DNA of 35,359 bases from a virus: the UHGV virus genome UHGV-0358463; one strand, 5' to 3'. A model generated the notes under the pieces. It was not told the origin of the DNA, did no database searches, and saw only the letters and a program-made list of their open reading frames with translations. Of the stretch, positions 115-14,729 are shown in pieces. Every line of letters begins with the position of its first letter. Positions within the stretch are counted from its first letter, which is position 1. The position numbers and the translations under genes were made by a program.

Positions 115-190
115 GCCGATATAGCTCAGTTGGTAGAGCAGCGCATTCGTAATGCGAAGGTCGTAGGTTCGACTCCTATTATCGGCACCA
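115..190 (+). tRNA. thrW: tRNA-Thr, anticodon CGU
   Basis: 76-nt cloverleaf: acceptor stem GCCGATA/TATCGGC, D-arm TAGCTCAGTTGGTAGAGCA, anticodon stem GCGCA/TGCGA with loop TTCGTAA, T-arm GGTTCGACTCC, 3' CCA. Confidence 0.9.
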
Positions 191-204
191 TTTAAATCAA
201 TAAG

Positions 205-1368
205 TTACACATCATTAGTACCTTCCTTATTTTTTGACTGGGACAAATTTGGGACCGATGGGTTCAGGATCGAGTCTATTTGCCGTGCGTGTTCGGTAAG
301 GTGATTAGGTGCAAGGTGAGCATATCGACGAACCATTTCGATAGACTCCCAGCCTCCCATTTCCTGTAACACTGACAACGGGACTCCGGCTTGAACCAGC
401 CAACTTGCCCAGGTGTGTCTCAAGTCGTGAAATCTGAAATCATCAATACCAGCCCGTCTCAGCGCCGCTTTCCAGGCTGTGTTTGCGTCATACCGCATCT
501 TCCTTACTGTTGGCGCTTTCGTTCCGTCTGGTTTGGTACAGCTTTCCTTGTACACAAATACCCAACGGTGATGATTCCCGATTTGTTTTTTCAATACGCG
601 ACATGCAGTATCATTCAGCGCAACGCCAATTGCGCGGTTTGATTTACTCTCTTCCGGGTTTATCCATGCCACCCGGCGCTGCATATCTATTTGTTGCCAT
701 TCAAGGTTGATGATGTTCGAGCGTCTTAAGCCTGTTGCCAGTGCAAATTCAACAACAGACTTTAATGGCTCCGGACATTCATCAATCAGCCTTTGTGCTT
801 CATGGGGCTCCAGCCAGCGGATCCGTTTATTCTTTGGTTGAGGCACTTTAATAATTGGTGCCTTATCCAGCATTTTCCATTCACGCTCTGCGGCTCTTAG
901 TAGGGCCTTTATAAATGAAAGATGCGTAGCCTTCGTTGCAACGGACGCTGGTTTTGGCGTGTATTCTGGAACAGGTTTCCCTTTTTTTCTGCATGCTTCT
1001 GCCCTGAGTTTCCAGTTTTCCTCATGACGCCGGTTCGTCATTTTCTGCATTGCTGAATAAATTTTTGATTCGGTAATGTCTCTTAGTTGCATTCCTGCGA
1101 AATGTTGAAGCCAGAATCCGATCCGGCTTTTGTCATCGTCCAGTGATTTTTTATGTGCTTTCTCTTCAAGCCACCTGACACACGCTTCCTCGAACGTTAT
1201 ATCAGGTATTTCACCAAGTTTGCTGACCCGCCATGCTTCAGCCTTTAGCTTGTCATGGAGTTCTGTCGCCTGCCTTTTGTCCTTTGTTCCAAGAGACTGT
1301 TTAAATCTTTTACCGTTCGGCAATGTGAAACTGGCGTACCATATTTCACCTCTGCGGAAGAGTGACAT
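205..1368 (-). CDS. int: tyrosine-type site-specific integrase (P22-like family)
   Basis: 387 aa. N-terminus [48 protein letters not shown] and C-terminal [10 protein letters not shown]...RRYAH catalytic region typical of phage tyrosine recombinases; sits next to the tRNA. Confidence 0.95.
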
Positions 1369-5589: not shown

Positions 5590-6282
5590 TTAATTATGTC
5601 TCTTAAGGGTTTGCGACTGACTGATTAAGACCTTTCCAAAGACCATGAATCGGTGTTCGTTTTCGCTAGTAATTCCCCATTCACGGTAAATCTGGTTATC
5701 AGAAATCACCAGCAGTTTGTCAGGAATCATTTGAAGTCTTTTAACGTATATTTTGTCATCAAAACCAAAGACATATATACCATCACCATCAAACTGATTG
5801 ATGCTGACATCAACGAAGATGAGATCTCCTGGCTCAATGGTTGGACACATACTGTCCCCACGAACGTTGATAACTTTGATGTGATTGGCTGGTCGTCCGC
5901 CGAACATTGATACAGCATTATCAGTTCTGTATTCGATGGCATGAATCACATCAATGACATCACCGCCCTGGATAAGGCCATTTCCCGCACTGGCACTGAT
6001 ATCCAGCATTTCAATACGGAACACATCCTTCACCTGCGCAACATCCTCATTATTACTGTTTTTATATACAGTATTACTTTTGTGGGCAGAGGTAAAGAGA
6101 TCAGCAATATCAACACCTAAGCTCTTGGCAATATTACTCAGTGTTTGTTCGGTAAATTGTTTTTGCTTACCCGTTTCTAAGCGCGAGATGTTCGCCGCAT
6201 CTACTCCTATTGCTTCAGCGAGATCGGCGATTTTCATGTTCTTCGCTTGGCGAAGTTGTCTGACTCGGTTTCCTATGTTCAT
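5590..6282 (-). CDS. cI-type prophage repressor (N-terminal XRE HTH, C-terminal S24 LexA-like peptidase)
   Basis: 230 aa; HTH region IADLAEAIGVDAANISRLETGK; S24 signature ...VRGDSMCPTIEPGDLIFVD...YVKRL... . Confidence 0.9.
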   Translation of the reverse strand: MNIGNRVRQLRQAKNMKIADLAEAIGVDAANISRLETGKQKQFTEQTLSNIAKSLGVDIADLFTSAHKSNTVYKNSNNEDVAQVKDVFRIEMLDISASAGNGLIQGGDVIDVIHAIEYRTDNAVSMFGGRPANHIKVINVRGDSMCPTIEPGDLIFVDVSINQFDGDGIYVFGFDDKIYVKRLQMIPDKLLVISDNQIYREWGITSENEHRFMVFGKVLISQSQTLKRHN

Positions 6283-6302
6283 GCGTTTATTACATTTCTT
6301 TA

Positions 6303-6365
6303 TTGCGTGATAAGCAAATCAACTTGCGCAAAATAATTGCGTGAAATAACATGCATAACGCGCAA
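6303..6365. promoter_or_regulatory. right operator/divergent promoter region between repressor and cro-like genes: TTGCGTGATAAGCAA (6303-6317), palindrome TTGCGCAA (6324-6331), ATGCATAACGCGCAA (6351-6365)
   Basis: Repeated TTGCG/CGCAA half-sites in the 97-bp intergenic region. Confidence 0.5.
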
Positions 6366-6379
6366 TATTTGGAGGGCAT

Positions 6380-6640
6380 ATGCAATCACCATTACGAAAT
6401 GTGCGTAAGGCGCATGGTTTCACTTTGCAGCATGTTGCTGCGGGTGTTCAAGTCAATCCAGCGACGTTGAGTCGTATTGAGAGGCTGGAGCAGATTCCAT
6501 CTATCGAGCTTGCAGAACGTTTAGCCAATTTTTTTAAGGGTGAAGTCAGCGAAATGCAGATTCTTTATCCGGCACGTTTTCAATCTAGCCAAAACCAGAA
6601 TGGGTTTAAACCACAGGAACAGGAGGTGAACCGTGGGTAA
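6380..6640 (+). CDS. Cro-like HTH regulator (XRE family)
   Basis: 86 aa; HTH GFTLQHVAAGVQVNPATLSRIERLEQIPSIELAERLANFF; divergent from the repressor; GGAGGG Shine-Dalgarno. Confidence 0.8.
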   Translation: MQSPLRNVRKAHGFTLQHVAAGVQVNPATLSRIERLEQIPSIELAERLANFFKGEVSEMQILYPARFQSSQNQNGFKPQEQEVNRG

Positions 6641-7184
6641 GCATCACTGGAAAGTAGAAAAACAGCCTGAGTGGTACGTGAAAGCTGTCAGAAAAACTAT
6701 CGCAGCGTTGCCGGGGGGGTACGCTGAAGCTGCTGACTGGCTGGATGTAACAGAGAACGCATTATTTAACCGCCTTCGTGCCGATGGCGATCAGATTTTC
6801 CCGCTGGGATGGGCAATGATTTTGCAACGTGCTGGTGGAACTCACTTCATTGCTGACGCTGTGGCGCAGTCTGCAAATGGCGTCTTTGTGTCTCTTCCTG
6901 ACGTCGAGGATGTGGACAACGCCGATATTAACCAGCGCCTGCTGGAAGTCATTGAACAGATCGGCAGTTATTCAAAACAGATTCGTTCAGCAATTGAAGA
7001 CGGTGTAGTGGAACCGCATGAGAAGACAGCAATTAACGACGAGCTGTACCTCTCAATTTCGAAGCTGCAGGAGCATGCAGCACTGGTCTACAAAATTTTT
7101 TGCATTTCAGAAAGTAATGACGCCCGCGAGTGTGCAGCTCCGGGCGCCGTGGCGTGTCGTGACTGTGGAGAAACTAACGCATGA
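6633..7184 (+). CDS. CII/YdaT-like regulatory protein
   Basis: 183 aa; GTG start 6 nt after AGGAGG, overlapping the cro-like stop; third gene of an immunity module; C-terminal CxxC. Family is a tentative assignment from memory. Confidence 0.55.
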
Positions 7185-7528: not shown

Positions 7529-8470
7529 ATGAGCACTAAATTAACCGGCTATGTATGGGATGGTTGCGCTGCATCAGGCATGAAATTATCCAGCGTGGCA
7601 ATTATGGCCCGCCTGGCTGATTTCAGTAATGACGAAGGTGTGTGCTGGCCATCAATTGAAACCATTGCCCGCCAGATTGGCGCGGGGATGAGTACCGTCA
7701 GAACGGCTATCGCACGGCTGGAAGCAGAAGGCTGGTTAACGCGTAAGGCGCGTCGCCAGGGTAACCGCAATGCGTCGAATGTTTATCAGCTTAACGTTGC
7801 GAAGCTTCAGGCAGCGGCATTTTCTCAACTGTCAGATTCTGACCCGTCAAAATCTGACGCATCAAAATCTGACCCGTCAAAATTTGATGCGTCGAAATCT
7901 GGCAAAAAAGCGGGTTTTCACCCGTCAGAATCTGGCGGGGATCCGTCAGTAAAATCAAAACATGATCCGTCAGATAAAAAAACTTCGTGTCCGGACGCTT
8001 CGCAACCGGACACGAAGAAGGCTGAACAGGATTTTTTAACTCGCCATCCTGATGCGGTTGTATTCAGCCCTAAAAAGCGCCAGTGGGGAACGCAGGATGA
8101 TTTGACCTGCGCACAGTGGCTCTGGAAAAAAATCATCGCTCTGTACGAGCAGGCCGCCGAATGTGACGGCGAGGTGGTTCGTCCCAAAGAACCGAACTGG
8201 ACAGCCTGGGCAAACGAAATACGCCTGATGTGTGTGCAGGATGGTCGTACTCACAAACAAATCTGCGAGATGTACAGCCGCGTCAGCCGCGATCCGTTCT
8301 GGTGCCGTAACGTGCTCAGCCCGTCGAAGTTGCGGGAAAAATGGGATGAGCTTTCCCTGCGCTTATCACCGTCTGTCAGCACGTACACCGAAAAACGCGA
8401 AGACCCGTACTTCAAATCCAGTTACGACAACGTGGACTACAGCCAGATCCCGGCAGGATTCAGGGGGTGA
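7529..8470 (+). CDS. replication initiator (lambda O-like) with iterons inside the coding sequence
   Basis: 313 aa; N-terminal winged-helix-like region; central repetitive DPSKSD/ASKSD tract encoded by the iterons. Confidence 0.8.
   Translation: MSTKLTGYVWDGCAASGMKLSSVAIMARLADFSNDEGVCWPSIETIARQIGAGMSTVRTAIARLEAEGWLTRKARRQGNRNASNVYQLNVAKLQAAAFSQLSDSDPSKSDASKSDPSKFDASKSGKKAGFHPSESGGDPSVKSKHDPSDKKTSCPDASQPDTKKAEQDFLTRHPDAVVFSPKKRQWGTQDDLTCAQWLWKKIIALYEQAAECDGEVVRPKEPNWTAWANEIRLMCVQDGRTHKQICEMYSRVSRDPFWCRNVLSPSKLREKWDELSLRLSPSVSTYTEKREDPYFKSSYDNVDYSQIPAGFRG
7830..7980. repeat. replication origin iteron array (at least 6 copies of ~15 bp CCGTCAAAATCTGAC-like units) followed by an A-rich tract
   Basis: Units at 7844, 7859, 7874, 7889, 7922 and 7965, then AAAAAAA at 7975-7981. 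Confidence 0.6.
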
Positions 8471-8961
8471 TCATGAGTCTTTTGAATGAAGTTCAGAAAT
8501 TCATTGAAGCCCATCCGGGATGTACTTCCGGAGACATTGCGGATGCTTTTGCAGGTTACTCACGGCAGCGCGTTCTGCAGTCAGCAAGCAAGTTACGTCA
8601 GAGTGGGCGTGTGGCTCACCGTTGTGAAGGAGATACACGCAGACATTTCCCGCGCCTGACTGAGAGAGCGCAGGAACCGGAACCACAACCAGTTCGAGAA
8701 ACCAGACCTGTGCGCAATTTCTATGTCGGCACTAACGATCCACGGGTGATTTTGTGCCTGACCCGCCAGGCTGAAGAACTGGAGTCCAGGGGCTTATACC
8801 GTCGTGCTGCAACCGTGTGGATGGCGGCATTCCGTGAAAGCCACTCCCAGCCAGAACGAAACAATTTTCTGGCGCGTCGTGAGCGGTGCTTACGGAAAAG
8901 CAGCAAGCGCGCTGCATCGGGTGAAGAGTGGTATCTGTCAGGGAATTACGTGGGGGCTTAA
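8467..8961 (+). CDS. PerC-family-like transcriptional regulator with N-terminal winged-helix extension
   Basis: 164 aa; C-terminal EELESRGLYRRAATVWMAAFRESHSQPERNNFLARRERCL resembles the PerC/Pch signature (recalled, not searched). Confidence 0.55.
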   Translation: MIMSLLNEVQKFIEAHPGCTSGDIADAFAGYSRQRVLQSASKLRQSGRVAHRCEGDTRRHFPRLTERAQEPEPQPVRETRPVRNFYVGTNDPRVILCLTRQAEELESRGLYRRAATVWMAAFRESHSQPERNNFLARRERCLRKSSKRAASGEEWYLSGNYVGA

Positions 8962-9614
8962 TGAGTAATAAATATTGCCAGGCGCTGGTGGAACTACGGA
9001 ACAAACCAGCCCATGAACTGAAGGAAGTGGGCGATCAGTGGCGCACGCCGGACAACATTTTCTGGGGAATTAACACCCTGTTTGGCCCGTTTGTTCTGGA
9101 TCTGTTTACTGACGGTGATAACGCCAAATGTGCCGCGTATTACACGGCGGAAGATAACGCGCTGGCGCATGACTGGTCAGAACGTCTTGCGGAGCTTAAA
9201 GGTGCTGCCTTTGGTAATCCCCCATACAGCCGCGCCAGTCAGCATGAGGGGCAATACATCACCGGCATGCGTTACATCATGAAACATGCCAGTGCCATGC
9301 GTGATAAGGGCGGGCGCTATGTTTTCCTGATCAAAGCTGCCACCAGCGAAGTGTGGTGGCCGGAAGATGCGGACCATATTGCTTTTATTCGCGGGCGTAT
9401 TGGTTTTGAACTGCCTGCCTGGTTTATCCCGAAGGATGAGAAGCAGGTGCCGACAGGCGCTTTCTTCGCTGGTGCTATTGCTGTTTTCGACAAGACCTGG
9501 AAGGGACCGGCAATCAGCTACATCGGGCGCGATGAACTTGAGGCATGTGGTGAAGCCTTTCTGGTGCAGGTTCGCCAGCAGGCGGAAAAACTGGTCAGGG
9601 AGATGGCGGCATGA
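8961..9614 (+). CDS. phage DNA N6-adenine methyltransferase (Dam-like, DPPY-type)
   Basis: 217 aa from the ATG at 8961 (TAATG overlap); catalytic motif FGNPPYS. Confidence 0.8.
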   Translation: MSNKYCQALVELRNKPAHELKEVGDQWRTPDNIFWGINTLFGPFVLDLFTDGDNAKCAAYYTAEDNALAHDWSERLAELKGAAFGNPPYSRASQHEGQYITGMRYIMKHASAMRDKGGRYVFLIKAATSEVWWPEDADHIAFIRGRIGFELPAWFIPKDEKQVPTGAFFAGAIAVFDKTWKGPAISYIGRDELEACGEAFLVQVRQQAEKLVREMAA

Positions 9615-9937
9615 CGACGTTAACTCAATGCCAGCAGCAGGTGCTGGATATGCTGATTTCTTACCAGAAAGAGCGTGGCTTTCCGCCAACCAATCAGGAG
9701 GTGGCAACCATGCTGGGATACCGTTCAGTGAATGCAGCGGTAGAGCATCTTCGTGCACTGGAGAAAAAAGGCGTCATCACGATAAAGCGTGGCGTGGCCC
9801 GGGGGATAACGCTTCATACCGCGGTGAAGGACGACGACAGCGAGGCGGTCGGGATTATCCGCGCACTGCTTGCCGGTGAGGAAAACGCCAGGCTGCGTGC
9901 AGCCCACTGGTTACATGAGAGAGGCCTGAAAGTATGA
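9611..9937 (+). CDS. LexA-like DNA-binding-domain protein lacking the S24 peptidase domain
   Basis: 108 aa; QQQVLDMLISYQKERGFPPTNQEVATMLGYRSVNAAVEHLRALEKKGVITI parallels the LexA N-terminal winged helix. Confidence 0.7.
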   Translation: MTTLTQCQQQVLDMLISYQKERGFPPTNQEVATMLGYRSVNAAVEHLRALEKKGVITIKRGVARGITLHTAVKDDDSEAVGIIRALLAGEENARLRAAHWLHERGLKV

Positions 9938-10323
9938 AGCTGATCTTGCCTTTCCCGCCCAGCGTGAACACGTACTGGCGACACCCCAACAAAGGGGCGT
10001 TTGTAGGTAAAAGCCTGATAAGCGAGGCGGGGCGAAAATTCCAGAGCGCGGCGTGCGCAGCAATAGTTGAGCAGTTACGTCGTCTGCCGAAACCAACGTC
10101 GGCACCTGCTTCAGTGGAGATCGTGTTGTTTCCTCCGGATAACCGGATCCGCGATCTGGACAACTATAACAAGGCGCTGTTTGACGCCCTGACCCACGCG
10201 GGGGTGTGGGAAGACGACAGCCAGGTGAAAAGAATGCTGGTGGAGTGGGGGCCGGTTATCCCGGAAGGGAAGGTCGAGATCACTATCAGTAAGTACGAGA
10301 AAACGGCGGGTGCAGCCGCCTGA
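9934..10323 (+). CDS. rusA: RusA-family Holliday junction resolvase
   Basis: 129 aa; MKLILPFPPSVNTYWRH...IRDLDNYNKALFDALTHAGVWEDDSQV is characteristic of RusA. Confidence 0.85.
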   Translation: MKLILPFPPSVNTYWRHPNKGAFVGKSLISEAGRKFQSAACAAIVEQLRRLPKPTSAPASVEIVLFPPDNRIRDLDNYNKALFDALTHAGVWEDDSQVKRMLVEWGPVIPEGKVEITISKYEKTAGAAA

Positions 10324-10342: not shown

Positions 10343-11140
10343 ATGAATAATCTGATGGTCATTGATGGTATTGAAGTTCGTCGTGATGCTTATGGGCGTT
10401 ACAGCCTGAACGATCTGCACAGGGCTGCCGGTTCTCAGGATAAGCATAAGCCTGCATTCTGGCTCCGCAATGAGCAAACCGAACGTTTAATAAGCGAGTT
10501 GCAGATTTGCAACTCGGTCAATATAGAGCCAGTTAACGTTAGTCGTGGCGGAAATAACCAGGGGACGTATGTCTGCAAAGAACTGGTGTATGCCTATGCA
10601 ATGTGGATCAGCCCGTCATTCCATCTGAAGGTGATCCGTACTTTCGATATGGTAACCAGCGCACCGGAAAAATTATCCGGGCAGGCTGCTGACAAGATGC
10701 AGGCTGGCGTGATTCTGCTGGACTTTATGCGCCGGGAGTTAAACCTGTCTAACTCATCTGTGCTTGGGGCCTGTCAGAAACTCCAGGAGGCTGTTGGCTT
10801 ACCGAATCTGGCACCACGCTATGCCATTGATGCTCCTGCTGACGCGCCTGATGGCTCAAGTCGCCCGACACTGTCACTGAGTGCACTGCTGAAACAGTAT
10901 GGTATCTGCCTGACGGCTAATCAGGCATATCACCAGATGGCGAAGCTGGGGATCGTGGAACAACGCGAACGATACAGCCGTACCGCGATTAACAACATCA
11001 AAAAATTCTGGTCGCTGACAGCGAAAGGCTGCATGTTCGGCAAGAACATCACCAGTCCCGCAAATCCGCGCGAGACGCAGCCGCATTTCTTCGAATCCCG
11101 ATTCCCTGAGCTGTTAAAGCTGCTCGATACCGTTCATTGA
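10343..11140 (+). CDS. KilA-N domain protein (antirepressor-like)
   Basis: 265 aa; N-terminal MNNLMVIDGIEVRRDAYGRYSLNDLHRAAG...PAFWLRNEQT matches the KilA-N fold signature. Confidence 0.7.
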   Translation: MNNLMVIDGIEVRRDAYGRYSLNDLHRAAGSQDKHKPAFWLRNEQTERLISELQICNSVNIEPVNVSRGGNNQGTYVCKELVYAYAMWISPSFHLKVIRTFDMVTSAPEKLSGQAADKMQAGVILLDFMRRELNLSNSSVLGACQKLQEAVGLPNLAPRYAIDAPADAPDGSSRPTLSLSALLKQYGICLTANQAYHQMAKLGIVEQRERYSRTAINNIKKFWSLTAKGCMFGKNITSPANPRETQPHFFESRFPELLKLLDTVH

Positions 11141-11141
11141 G

Positions 11142-12137
11142 GTGACCGTGAGAGCACTACTGACTCCTGAAATAGCCCCGCGTATGGGGATCGTATTGTT
11201 CAGACCCGGTTCAGAGCTGATGCCCCTGTTTATGCAGGGGCGTGTCCTGCTGGAGCCTGAGCCGGAACGTTATTCATCTTTCGCCAGTGGTGCCGTTCCC
11301 GCGGCATCACAACCGCTGGCGGATGATCCTGCCGTTCGGGCCGTGTTCTGCAATGAGGCAGTGATCCGTCGTACTGGTGGCGTGGAATGTCTTGAAAGCT
11401 GGTTACTTCGTGAAAAGGGCTGTCAGTGGCCTCATTCCGACTGGCACAGCGAGAACATGACCACAATGCGACACGCGCCGGGCGCGATCCGTCTGTGCTG
11501 GCACTGCGATAACCAGCTGCGCGATCAGTTCACGGAACGGTTGGAATCAATGGCAACGGATAACTGTGCCCGCTGGGTGTTGTCTGTTGTGCGTCGGGAT
11601 CTCGGTTTTGATGACAGTCACGTTGTGACAATGCCGGAACTGTGCTGGTGGCTGATTCGTAATGACCTGGCGGATGCCTTACCGGAAAGTGCAGCCCGTA
11701 AGGCACTGAGATTACCGAAGCCTGTTGTGCCGTCTGTCACCCGGGAAAGTGACCTTTTTCCTTCGGTTCCTGCCACCAGCATTATCCAGGATAAAGCGAA
11801 ACAGGTGCTGGCGCTGAAAGTGGATCCAGAGTCGCCGGAGTCTTTTATGTTACGCCCAAAACGTCGCCGCTGGGTTAATGAAAAGTACACGCGCTGGGTT
11901 AAGACACAGCCGTGTGCATGTTGTGGAAAGCCTGCTGATGATCCCCACCACCTGATAGGTCACGGTCAGGGTGGAATGGGTACAAAAGCGCATGACCTCT
12001 TTGTGTTGCCTTTGTGCAGAAAGCATCACGACGAGCTGCATGCGGATACCGTGGCATTTGAAGAGATGTATGGCTCCCAGTTGGAACTGATATTTCGTTT
12101 TATTGATCGTGCGCTGGCAATTGGCGTGCTGGCCTGA
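11142..12137 (+). CDS. DUF968-like phage protein with Cys/His-rich C-terminus
   Basis: 331 aa; GTG start at 11142 (alternative ATG downstream); C-terminal CACCGKPADDPHHLIGHGQGG...CRKHHDELH suggests a zinc-binding, HNH-like motif. Confidence 0.6.
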   Translation: MTVRALLTPEIAPRMGIVLFRPGSELMPLFMQGRVLLEPEPERYSSFASGAVPAASQPLADDPAVRAVFCNEAVIRRTGGVECLESWLLREKGCQWPHSDWHSENMTTMRHAPGAIRLCWHCDNQLRDQFTERLESMATDNCARWVLSVVRRDLGFDDSHVVTMPELCWWLIRNDLADALPESAARKALRLPKPVVPSVTRESDLFPSVPATSIIQDKAKQVLALKVDPESPESFMLRPKRRRWVNEKYTRWVKTQPCACCGKPADDPHHLIGHGQGGMGTKAHDLFVLPLCRKHHDELHADTVAFEEMYGSQLELIFRFIDRALAIGVLA

Positions 12138-12154
12138 TTTGGTGGAGAAAGTTG

Positions 12155-12502
12155 ATGCGTGATATGTATGAAGTATTGGACCGCTGGGGAGCATGGGCTG
12201 CAGCAGAAAATAGTGGTGTGGACTGGCAGCCGATAGCGGCTGGTTTCAAGGGACTTTTACCACACGGTAAAAAGTCACGTCTCCAGTGTGATGATGATGA
12301 AGGCATCATGATAGATAGTTGTGTGGCTAGGTTGCGTAAATATAAGCCGGAAGAGTATGAGCTGATAATTGCTCACTTTGTTATCGGTATCTCATTACGC
12401 ACTATTGCGAAGAAGAGAAAATGCTCTGATGGGACTATAAGAAAAAAGTTGCAAGCTGCATTGGGATTTATTGATGCAGTTATATATATAATACATGGGT
12501 AA
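12155..12502 (+). CDS. late-gene antiterminator Q (phage-82 Q family)
   Basis: 115 aa from the ATG at 12155 (GGAG Shine-Dalgarno); MRDMYEVLDRWGAWAA...DGTIRKKLQAALGFIDAV resembles phage-82-type Q proteins. Confidence 0.75.
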   Translation: MRDMYEVLDRWGAWAAAENSGVDWQPIAAGFKGLLPHGKKSRLQCDDDEGIMIDSCVARLRKYKPEEYELIIAHFVIGISLRTIAKKRKCSDGTIRKKLQAALGFIDAVIYIIHG

Positions 12503-12509
12503 TTTATTA

Positions 12510-12528
12510 GACGGCCATATTGGCCGTC
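12510..12528. terminator. perfect 8-bp hairpin (GACGGCCA-tat-TGGCCGTC) between convergent Q and cassette genes; possible bidirectional terminator
   Basis: Palindrome read directly; flanked by AT-rich sequence on both sides but no clean T-tract. Confidence 0.3.
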
Positions 12529-13705
12529 AGCTAAATAAATATGTAATAGCATAAGGCGTAAGTAAAAAGTAGAACCTAAATGTAAGATATAAGCCACATA
12601 AAACTATAATTCCTAATGAGGCAAAAACAACTTTCTGAACAAGCAATCTTGTGGTTAAACTATCAAATGTATCCTTTATATCTTCGTAAATAGCCTTGAA
12701 GTTATATTCTGCTTGTTGTTTTTTATGATTTAACTCATCATTTATTGCTGTTAAAGTTTGCCATTGATTAAATAGAACAAATAGAATCATAATAGTGAAG
12801 AACAATGCACCCAACACTACAGCTGTATTTATTAATGCTTGACTATCCCAACCATTAGCCTGCTTCATTTGAGTCGCAACGATAATTGTTGCGACGGGGA
12901 TACCTAATATCTGATTTTGTATGTCACTGAATACTTTATGTATTTTTCCCATCTCTTCTATTTTGGCTACTCGTAACTGATCCAGTATTTTCTCGTAAGA
13001 AAAACCAGAAACGAATACTTTGTATCCTTTTTGATAACTTTCATAAAGTTGTCCTAAATCCCTTAACATGAAGGAAAAAGAGGTTTCTTTAGTTTTAGAT
13101 TCACATGATGATTTTATGCTACTTGCTAAAATAGTAAGTTTTTGATCTTTATGCGTATCTTCTGCAAAGTTTGCGATCAAATTATGAATCAGATCTCCAT
13201 TAACATTCATAAGATCATCGCTAGAATAATTTACTGGAATTTTTAGTACGTTGGATTCGACGAATACCAATTCAAAATTTGTTTCATCTAAATAAGCAGA
13301 ACAATCTTTGAATAAAGTAATTAAGCTCAAAACATCTCTGTACTTGGATATAATAGCAGGCGACTTTTTATCCCTGTTGTGATAATTAAGTTCGATTATA
13401 AAGAAGTTACTGGCTTCCTTTATCCTATTTTTAGGATTTTTTAAATACTCATTAAAAGAGAAATGTAGCTGCCCCAATCGTAATTTGGGGGGGGTTATAT
13501 GTAAGGTTATAGTTTGGCCTAACTCAATGTTGCCAGATTCAAGGGTGATGCCAAAATCATGGGGATTCTCTGTGATATCGTTGATGATGTTACAGAGCTC
13601 CTCGTTTGAAAGAATGAGTGATGCTTCAGATAGGGTACCTGCAAATGTAGCGGCCTTGTAAATAGTCACTAAGTCTTTGAAGGTTCTCTGATTGTTACTG
13701 CTCAT
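12527..13705 (-). CDS. cassette gene B: protein with a large soluble N-terminal domain and two C-terminal hydrophobic helices
   Basis: 392 aa from the ATG at 13705 (ORF track gives 13714, a GTG); hydrophobic segments ALINTAVVLGALFFTIMILFVLF and KVVFASLGIIVLCGLYLTFRFYFLL; overlaps gene A by 11 nt. Confidence 0.7.
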   Translation of the reverse strand: MSSNNQRTFKDLVTIYKAATFAGTLSEASLILSNEELCNIINDITENPHDFGITLESGNIELGQTITLHITPPKLRLGQLHFSFNEYLKNPKNRIKEASNFFIIELNYHNRDKKSPAIISKYRDVLSLITLFKDCSAYLDETNFELVFVESNVLKIPVNYSSDDLMNVNGDLIHNLIANFAEDTHKDQKLTILASSIKSSCESKTKETSFSFMLRDLGQLYESYQKGYKVFVSGFSYEKILDQLRVAKIEEMGKIHKVFSDIQNQILGIPVATIIVATQMKQANGWDSQALINTAVVLGALFFTIMILFVLFNQWQTLTAINDELNHKKQQAEYNFKAIYEDIKDTFDSLTTRLLVQKVVFASLGIIVLCGLYLTFRFYFLLTPYAITYLFS

Positions 13706-14729
13706 CCTCTTCACCTAATTCTGATAAAATCTCTGATCTTAGCGTATCCGGAATCTCGGTAAGTATCAATTTATCGTTTTCTGAATCATAAAGAACGCTG
13801 CCATCATGCAAGGCCGCACGCTCGAATTTCAGAGACCAATGTTTGGACTTTCCTTTGAAACTAACAAGCCCACGTATAACGTTGCCATCAGGCACGAACC
13901 CATCAGAGAACTCCAGATCGTCATTGGTTAACTTTTCAACTAACAACTCAGGAGCAGTTGGCCATATCTCGTTTGCAAAAACTTGAGTGTCGAAAGCTTC
14001 ACCAGAACGATTTAAATTTTTTAATTTTTCATGAGCCTTATTTAGGAACTCTTCACGTGCCTCTGGTTCAAAACCTCTTTCAGTAGCAAATTCTAAAAGT
14101 GCATTCCGTAATTTTGTTGTTTCTTGTTTGGCAATTAGAATATCGTTGCAACCTAAAAACTTTTTGAAATAACCTGCTACTGAATTTTGCCCCTTTAGAA
14201 AGCTAATATATCTCTCTTTGCCATTCTGGCGCCCAGTTAAGTCAATTCGTCCCGCTACTCGAAGTTTAGCAATGTCTAGATATTCACTTTCTTGAATTTC
14301 AAAATCGTGGACTGAAGAGCCAACTGCTGATGTTAGGATTGCAACCATCAAATAATGATTTCCATTTACCTCATTATGGGCAATTATTACATAACCACCA
14401 GTAGACATTGATTCATCATCGGCTCTGGCTTTTAAATGATTGATCATTCGGATACTAGTATCATAAAAACTATGTGTTTTATTTACGAAATAATCATCAA
14501 CGATATTACCCATAGGGTAACTATCGCGGTCATCTTCAAATTTACCATATCCTTTACCTGCTCTCCCAGAGTACCTTTCAGTAAGTGCGTTAGAGAGGTC
14601 TTTTGATGCTTGCTGAACAGGTTTTTCTGAAGGACAAGGAATAATGGTGGCTAACCCCTGTTGTTCCTTGTTCATAATGTGAACAATAAACTTATGAGTG
14701 ATATTAGTGGGGGTCGCTGATGCAGTCAT
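13695..14729 (-). CDS. cassette gene A: NdpA/YejK-like nucleoid-associated-protein family homologue
   Basis: 344 aa; AAGGA Shine-Dalgarno at 14738-14742. Collinear matches to E. coli YejK recalled from memory: GGYVIIAH..YLMVAILTS, YLDIAKLRVAGRIDLTG, RYISFLKGQ, VAGYFKKFLGC, LILTEIPDTLRSEI. Confidence 0.75.
   Translation of the reverse strand: MTASATPTNITHKFIVHIMNKEQQGLATIIPCPSEKPVQQASKDLSNALTERYSGRAGKGYGKFEDDRDSYPMGNIVDDYFVNKTHSFYDTSIRMINHLKARADDESMSTGGYVIIAHNEVNGNHYLMVAILTSAVGSSVHDFEIQESEYLDIAKLRVAGRIDLTGRQNGKERYISFLKGQNSVAGYFKKFLGCNDILIAKQETTKLRNALLEFATERGFEPEAREEFLNKAHEKLKNLNRSGEAFDTQVFANEIWPTAPELLVEKLTNDDLEFSDGFVPDGNVIRGLVSFKGKSKHWSLKFERAALHDGSVLYDSENDKLILTEIPDTLRSEILSELGEEDEQ

Follow-up and report, generated by a model that had tools for sequence, protein, structure and literature searches.

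YfdN of SfV/CPS-53-type lambdoid prophages: a winged helix joined to a PerC core, encoded directly after the replication initiator

PerC of EPEC and PchA/B/C of EHEC O157 are horizontally acquired, phage-associated regulators that activate ler (PMC5931665; PMC4764244), and a phage gene bearing their signature raises the question of whether its product acts on host virulence loci or serves the phage that carries it. Such a gene lies in the 35,359-nucleotide stretch of viral DNA analyzed here (UHGV-0358463, hereafter the window). A preliminary description of this DNA had recognized an open reading frame with a PerC/Pch-like signature and an N-terminal winged-helix-like extension, and had suggested that a prophage-encoded protein of this type, whose family includes activators of virulence loci in pathogenic E. 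coli, could act on host genes.

yfdN in the early operon of the prophage

The ORF at 8467-8961 on the plus strand is intact in both the ORF list and the sequence. Its product is identical to E. coli K-12 YfdN (b2357) at 160 of 164 residues (98% protein identity), its DNA is 100% identical to RefSeq/PGAP genes named "yfdN: PerC family transcriptional regulator", and the PHROG family phrog_1324 ('transcriptional activator') matches residues 2-163 with E = 8e-79; in PHROGs the N-terminal and the C-terminal part each also have a family of their own. Near-identity to the K-12 protein together with the full-length profile match places the product in the YfdN orthologous group (yfdN; PHROG 1324), and the gene order of that group, initiator - yfdN - (methyltransferase), is found here as well. 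These matches identify the ORF as yfdN, which is conserved among the early genes of SfV/CPS-53-type lambdoid prophages, and the Pfam PerC and PHROG 1324 hits bear out that an ORF with a PerC/Pch-like signature is real and the motif not a product of chance. Public annotation already contains the gene, with the PerC-family label and the wide distribution. EcoGene-style annotation lists K-12 YfdN as 'uncharacterized protein'; yfdN has been termed 'the K12 unique PerC homologue' and was removed as a precautionary measure from a strain carrying a ler-lacZ reporter (PMC5931665), and a screen for glycogen by over-expression picked it up (PMC2853380).

Although annotated from GTG 8467, yfdN probably starts at ATG 8473, giving a protein of 162 amino acids. 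This start is favored because an AGGGGG Shine-Dalgarno sequence (8462-8467) sits 5 nt upstream of it, overlapping the GTG, and because nearly all homologues start with MSL. By its substitution rates the gene is under purifying selection, with a dN/dS of 0.16 to 0.18 against the Salmonella, Hafnia and Citrobacter copies.

Megablast found yfdN in 2668 of 5426 complete E. coli genomes, nearly always on the chromosome, and in 49 phage records that include mEp460, Stx2c- and Stx2a-converting phages and Shigella phages; it is also found in the SfV/SfII/SfIV phages, and near-identical copies occur in Stx2-converting phages of O157. With 95.6-97.2% identity along its left 18 kb, the window itself is a lambdoid prophage of the SfV/SfII/SfIV kind, in agreement with the earlier view of YfdN as prophage-encoded, and it is apparently complete, with genes for immunity, replication, lysis and morphogenesis. 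A tRNA-Thr gene (anticodon CGT; 115-190, plus strand) adjoins the integrase gene (205-1368, minus strand) and is likely the integration site. The K-12 element CPS-53 (KpLE1) resembles the window in having an initiator remnant, yfdO, upstream of yfdN and a methyltransferase remnant, yfdM, downstream, and its genes yfdP/Q/R/S/T have equivalents in the window; the difference is that K-12 yfdN sits in a 10-kb cryptic remnant, whereas the window copy sits in an apparently complete prophage. Membership of YfdN in a defense system was considered and rejected, the sole PADLOC match to YfdN being to GajB at a meaningless 12.8 bits.

The genes from the immunity region to the antiterminator, with the iteron array inside the initiator gene, are as follows.

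5590-6282, minus strand: CI-like repressor (Pfam HTH_3 and Peptidase_S24)
6380-6640, plus strand: Cro-like HTH protein (ORF list); the immunity region spans 5590-6640
6633-7184, plus strand: CII-like CP76 protein (annotation/Pfam)
between 7184 and 7529, plus strand: small ORFs (annotation/Pfam)
7529-8470, plus strand: replication initiator, 313 aa, with an HTH_36 winged helix at the N-terminus
7817-7939: iteron array within the initiator gene, 5-6 TCAAAATCTGACSCR-like copies at a 15-bp period (repeat search)
8467-8961, plus strand: yfdN, 164 codons from GTG 8467, stop codon TAA at 8959-8961
8961-9614, plus strand: Dam-type N6-adenine DNA methyltransferase (Pfam PF05869 Dam, E = 9.7e-46)
9611-9937, plus strand: protein of 108 aa consisting of a LexA DNA-binding domain only (Pfam E = 2.9e-19)
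9934-10323, plus strand: RusA (annotation/Pfam)
10343-11140, plus strand: KilA-N protein (annotation/Pfam)
11142-12137, plus strand: DUF968 protein (annotation/Pfam)
12152-12502, plus strand: antiterminator Q (annotation/Pfam)

The stop codon of the initiator gene and the annotated start codon of yfdN overlap within GTGA, as do the yfdN stop codon and the methyltransferase start codon within TAATG, and yfdN appears from these junctions to be translationally coupled to both neighbors. The placement in a nin-like region given by the preliminary description is approximately right; put more exactly, yfdN comes next after the initiator gene. A search of the plus strand between 6400 and 10324 turned up no sigma-70-like promoter, and neither a promoter nor a terminator belonging to yfdN itself was found on that strand; a terminator-like plus-strand site at 6399-6416 was set aside as probably due to chance, lying as it does inside the cro-like ORF. 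The early-right transcript expected to carry yfdN should start in the immunity region. From the missing promoter and the position in the early operon we infer that yfdN is expressed when the prophage is induced or the phage infects, but not in the quiet lysogen. In strain CFT073 yfdN rises 12.6-fold together with other prophage genes under nitric oxide stress (PMC5320621), which is consistent with expression on prophage induction.

Two further features of this part of the prophage were observed. The LexA-domain protein has no S24 peptidase domain and is present in most related loci at about 48% identity; it may be a product of the early operon that binds LexA boxes and is non-cleavable. In the slot that holds the toxin genes in Stx phages, here flanked by antiterminator Q and the holin, two overlapping ORFs lie on the minus strand (12527-14729), one for a 343-aa NA37/YejK-like nucleoid-associated protein (Pfam E = 1.5e-68) and one for a 394-aa protein without a Pfam match. 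The NCBIfam models 'DS1_1 nucleoid-associated anti-phage protein' and 'DS1_2 anti-phage protein' score the pair at 56 and 70 bits, far below their cut-offs of 330 and 315, and PADLOC reports nothing for it. Related Salmonella prophages have a similar pair or a KAP NTPase at this spot, and the pair is a candidate two-gene defense moron.

Domain architecture and the PerC and ANR families

YfdN is built of two folded modules, a linker and a tail, at the following positions, all on the plus strand.

8479-8652, plus strand: N-terminal winged-helix domain (residues 5-62), three helices and a beta-hairpin wing
8659-8724, plus strand: variable linker, predicted to be disordered (residues 65-86; pLDDT below 50)
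8740-8916, plus strand: C-terminal three-helix PerC/Pch core, related to ANR (residues 92-150)
8779-8820, plus strand: PerC/Pch signature LESRGLYRRAATVW (residues 105-118)
8929-8958, plus strand: C-terminal tail motif W-Y-L-S/A-G-x-Y-x-G (residues 155-164)

The N-terminal domain follows the H1-(S1)-H2-H3-S2-wing-S3 order of the winged-helix fold, and the winged helix of the preliminary description thus stands, at residues 5-62. Basic residues mark helix 3 and the wing (R33, R35, K42, R44, R48, R52, R58 and R59), and some of the structural matches of the domain are protein-binding winged helices (the MotA N-domain and RPA32C). Sequence families give no counterpart at threshold: the MarR and Penicillinase_R matches are sub-threshold, and a PDB profile search by sequence returned a best E value of 1.3. 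Set beside the MarR/ArsR/SmtB/MecI/BlaI regulators and the T4 MotA N-domain, YfdN has no MarR-type dimerization helices. The linker varies in length and sequence in alignments, and dN peaks there. The helices of the C-terminal module span residues 92-108, 111-124 and 128-145 at a pLDDT of about 90. In the tail, modeled by AlphaFold2 at low confidence, G159 and G163 reach 90% conservation or more in homologues of 23-48% identity, and the tail looks like a short linear motif for a partner.

The HMM search of YfdN against the PerC family confirmed membership. Residues 100-151 match Pfam PF06069 PerC with 36.1 bits (E = 7.8e-9) against a gathering score of 22.6 bits, but the match covers only positions 5-56 of the 90 in the profile; divergent relatives of YfdN match about the same positions with 21.9-37.8 bits, straddling the threshold. 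PchA, PchD and PchE, taken from O157:H7 Sakai for comparison, cover positions 1-89 or 6-89 with 124-153 bits (PchA, 149 bits). In pairwise alignments YfdN is 41% identical to PchA over 44 residues, 40% to PchE over 52 and 33% to PchD over 46, which makes PchE the closest of the Pch proteins, and Pch residues from about 55 to 104 have no YfdN counterpart. What PerC and PchA/B/C share with YfdN, besides PF06069 itself, is a core of some 45-50 residues, A-x2-LE-x2-G-x-(Y/W)RRA-x3-W ... R ... C. As profile and alignment coverage indicate, YfdN holds the PerC core and no full PerC domain. Unlike the single-domain PerC proteins of about 89-104 aa, it adds a winged helix and a linker to reach 162-164 aa.

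Genomic setting also separates these proteins. pchA lies in the late region of prophage Sp4, beside IS elements and lysis genes and on the strand opposite to most Sp4 genes, whereas yfdN lies in an early replication operon. PchD and PchE, unlike YfdN, consist of a single domain of 89-90 aa and match the PerC profile throughout; the gene for PchD is in the island SpLE1, that for PchE in Sp7, a P4-like cryptic prophage, and that for a further PerC-family protein, EcCIMP1_025, in a PICI, whereas yfdN is in a lambdoid early operon. Orthology of YfdN with PchD or PchE was therefore rejected: only the core of 44-52 residues, at 33-41% identity, is common to them, and the Pch proteins lack the winged helix and are found in other kinds of element.

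A link between PerC-like proteins and the ANR family has been suspected by others (PMC11773190). The NCBIfam model ANR_neg_reg (NF033650) matches the C-terminal domain of YfdN with 24.6 bits (E = 1.6e-5) and the whole protein with 23.6 bits, below its curated cut-off of 32 bits; PchA, PchD and PchE match the same model positions more weakly, at 13.6-17.9 bits. The ANR consensus consists of A10, E14, A22, W26 and A29 on one face of three alpha-helices (PMC4983702), and A102, E106, A114, W118 and A121 of YfdN keep this spacing. ANR proteins such as Aar thus share with YfdN three predicted helices and the same Ala/Glu/Ala/Trp/Ala pattern, and by profile score, residue spacing and helix prediction the three-helix module is a distant relative of these anti-activators. 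By published descriptions the ANR proteins are small and accompany AraC-type (AraC/XylS-family) regulators, whereas in YfdN the core is not free-standing but joined to a winged helix. Among the subset of window ORFs scanned with Pfam, none had an AraC-type domain.

The initiator and its pairing with yfdN

The gene upstream of yfdN, named 'replication protein O' or 'primosomal protein' in public records, encodes a protein that matches Pfam HTH_36 (E = 4.2e-11) and, weakly, DnaD_N. Its iterons encode a repetitive SDPSKSDASKSDPSKFDASKS linker in the protein and, by analogy with the lambda origin within gene O, are presumed to be the origin of replication. The protein ends in ...DYSQIPAGFRG (8441-8470), of which SQIPAGFRG is identical at 8 of 9 positions to the end of K-12 DnaT, SQIPPGFRG. 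The similarity suggests that the tail mimics the host primosome protein for helicase recruitment. Otherwise dissimilar initiators of related phages end alike, in IPEGFRG, PEGFRS or PEGWRT.

In all loci with sequence upstream, the gene immediately before yfdN encodes an initiator. In prophages of Salmonella, Hafnia and Citrobacter, where YfdN is 66-73% identical, an HTH_36 initiator precedes yfdN, and the methyltransferase and LexA-domain genes are sometimes missing. Among 80 IMG/VR loci with yfdN at least 98% identical, three initiator types stand upstream: the window type, one with another N-domain, and one with a 39% identical N-domain that otherwise shares only the last 33 residues. About 60 further loci encode YfdN of 27-35% identity; there, identity is 86-89% for the initiator N-domain, about 80% for Dam and about 79% for RusA, similarity is no longer detectable in the initiator C-domain, and yfdN still overlaps the initiator stop. 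The scan of viral contigs with the family alignment gave only copies at least 98% identical, the divergent loci being reached through single divergent representatives. Across the loci that come with Pfam-annotated gene tables, no gene of the lambda P, DnaC or DnaB type is annotated.

The slot after yfdN is variable. Over the window and six loci (L011, L016, L093, L094, L140 and L147) it holds the PF05869 Dam, as in the window, a longer protein of 392-399 aa in which about 210 residues align with that Dam, a 274-aa ORF with a D12-like KWAGGK motif, a 222-aa ORF with a DPPW motif, or nothing; the motifs of the 274-aa and 222-aa ORFs, read by eye, suggest other methyltransferase types. Two database singletons from outside the window, P0026 and P0106, have the initiator winged helix fused in register to YfdN at the wing, so that it replaces or precedes the winged helix of YfdN itself. 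Such chimeras probably arose by deletion as prophages decayed, and illustrate that the initiator and YfdN winged helices are equivalent in topology.

What YfdN may do

We propose, with a confidence a little short of even, that YfdN acts as a regulator early in the phage cycle by remodeling complexes of nucleoprotein or of regulators. It would be expressed from the early-right transcript, which is under repressor control, after induction or infection. Its winged helix would bring it to DNA or to a partner, as families with this fold suggest, and its PerC/ANR-type module would then interfere with a nucleoprotein or regulator complex of repressive effect, for instance H-NS/StpA-type silencing. 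The outcome would be a change in the transcription of phage genes, and possibly of host genes, by activation or repression. An H-NS/StpA-type target is proposed because such complexes are reported to be loosened by Pch and bound by ANR proteins: Pch activates LEE1 only via relief of H-NS/StpA/Hha silencing (PMC4764244), and the ANR proteins contact AraC-type regulators and H-NS by protein-protein binding.

A role as a PerC/PchABC-type ler activator is not expected, and we regard the activation of host virulence loci (ler/LEE) by prophage-expressed YfdN, as put forward in the preliminary description, as very improbable. Such a role would draw on the Pfam PerC score above threshold, the action of PerC and PchABC on ler and the near-identical yfdN copies in O157 Stx2-converting phages, but it is disfavored because the C-terminal half of the PerC domain, present in all Pch proteins, is missing from YfdN, because the protein is 98% identical in LEE-free K-12 and about half of complete E. 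coli genomes carry its gene, because homologues behave in mixed ways, and because expression from a repressor-controlled operon, with no promoter of its own, is tied to lytic growth and not expected in the lysogenic state. The full-length PerC homologues PchD and PchE have a minimal effect on ler (PMC5931665), PchE represses curli and adhesion and raises flagella, and the PICI-encoded EcCIMP1_025 represses LEE1 (PMC11773190). PerC-family members thus activate, ignore or repress the LEE, and the family name is therefore no predictor of activation. In another reading YfdN is an ANR-like repressor or antagonist, and no DNA-targeted remodeler, whose helical module inactivates an AraC-type regulator, a phage or host repressor or H-NS by protein contact alone. 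The ANR score of its C-domain is higher than those of the Pch proteins, the consensus spacing and three-helix prediction are shared, and the authors who described EcCIMP1_025 suspected an ANR-like mode of action (PMC11773190); yet the score stays under the ANR cut-off, the ANR proteins are, by published descriptions, small and of three helices, whereas YfdN is a 164-aa protein with an added winged helix, and no gene for an AraC-type protein was seen among the subset of window ORFs scanned. We hold this reading to be unlikely.

The position of yfdN points elsewhere, to a second protein of the replication module in the slot of the lambda P/P22 gp12/DnaC-like loaders, which would act with the initiator at the iteron origin in opening, in helicase recruitment or in control of the initiator; we judge this, too, improbable. 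The linkage of initiator and yfdN is the main argument for any replication-related role. As in the lambda P, P22 gp12 and DnaC slot, yfdN immediately follows an initiator gene with iterons, to which its translation is coupled; the overlap of stop and start is kept in E. coli, Salmonella, Hafnia and Citrobacter, and the pairing extends to the 80 IMG/VR loci and the roughly 60 divergent ones. In the latter the initiator C-domain and YfdN diverge jointly while flanking genes remain about 80% identical, and the gene tables with Pfam entries list no P, DnaC or DnaB-type gene that would otherwise take this part. Against it, no sequence or structural similarity of YfdN to lambda P, P22 gp12 or DnaC, or more generally to a helicase or loader, is detectable; one and the same YfdN allele (99%) pairs with three initiator types, which argues against tight co-evolution; the DnaT-like tail of the initiator could recruit the host primosome alone; and the synteny may only mirror a conserved operon order in related mosaic phages. 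YfdN as a helicase loader proper was rejected, given the lack of similarity and an initiator tail that makes a separate loader less necessary.

We prefer the early regulator that remodels repressive complexes, and the pairing with the initiator allows a more specific speculation, which we consider doubtful and somewhat less probable than either the ANR-like or the replication-accessory reading: the YfdN family would be the obligatory partner of DnaT-tailed, iteron-binding initiators in the 'initiator-only' replication modules of SfV/CPS-53-type phages. One possibility is that YfdN may clear H-NS-type nucleoprotein from the origin or the early region, or tune the initiator. If this were true, replication and early transcription could start once YfdN had acted, and the PerC/ANR module would be ancestrally a phage module, the virulence regulators PerC and Pch having been recruited later. 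The label 'PerC family' on yfdN denotes a weak half-domain match and is not to be taken as 'virulence activator'. yfdN is among the commonest uncharacterized prophage genes of E. coli, and its knockout could assign a function across thousands of genomes.
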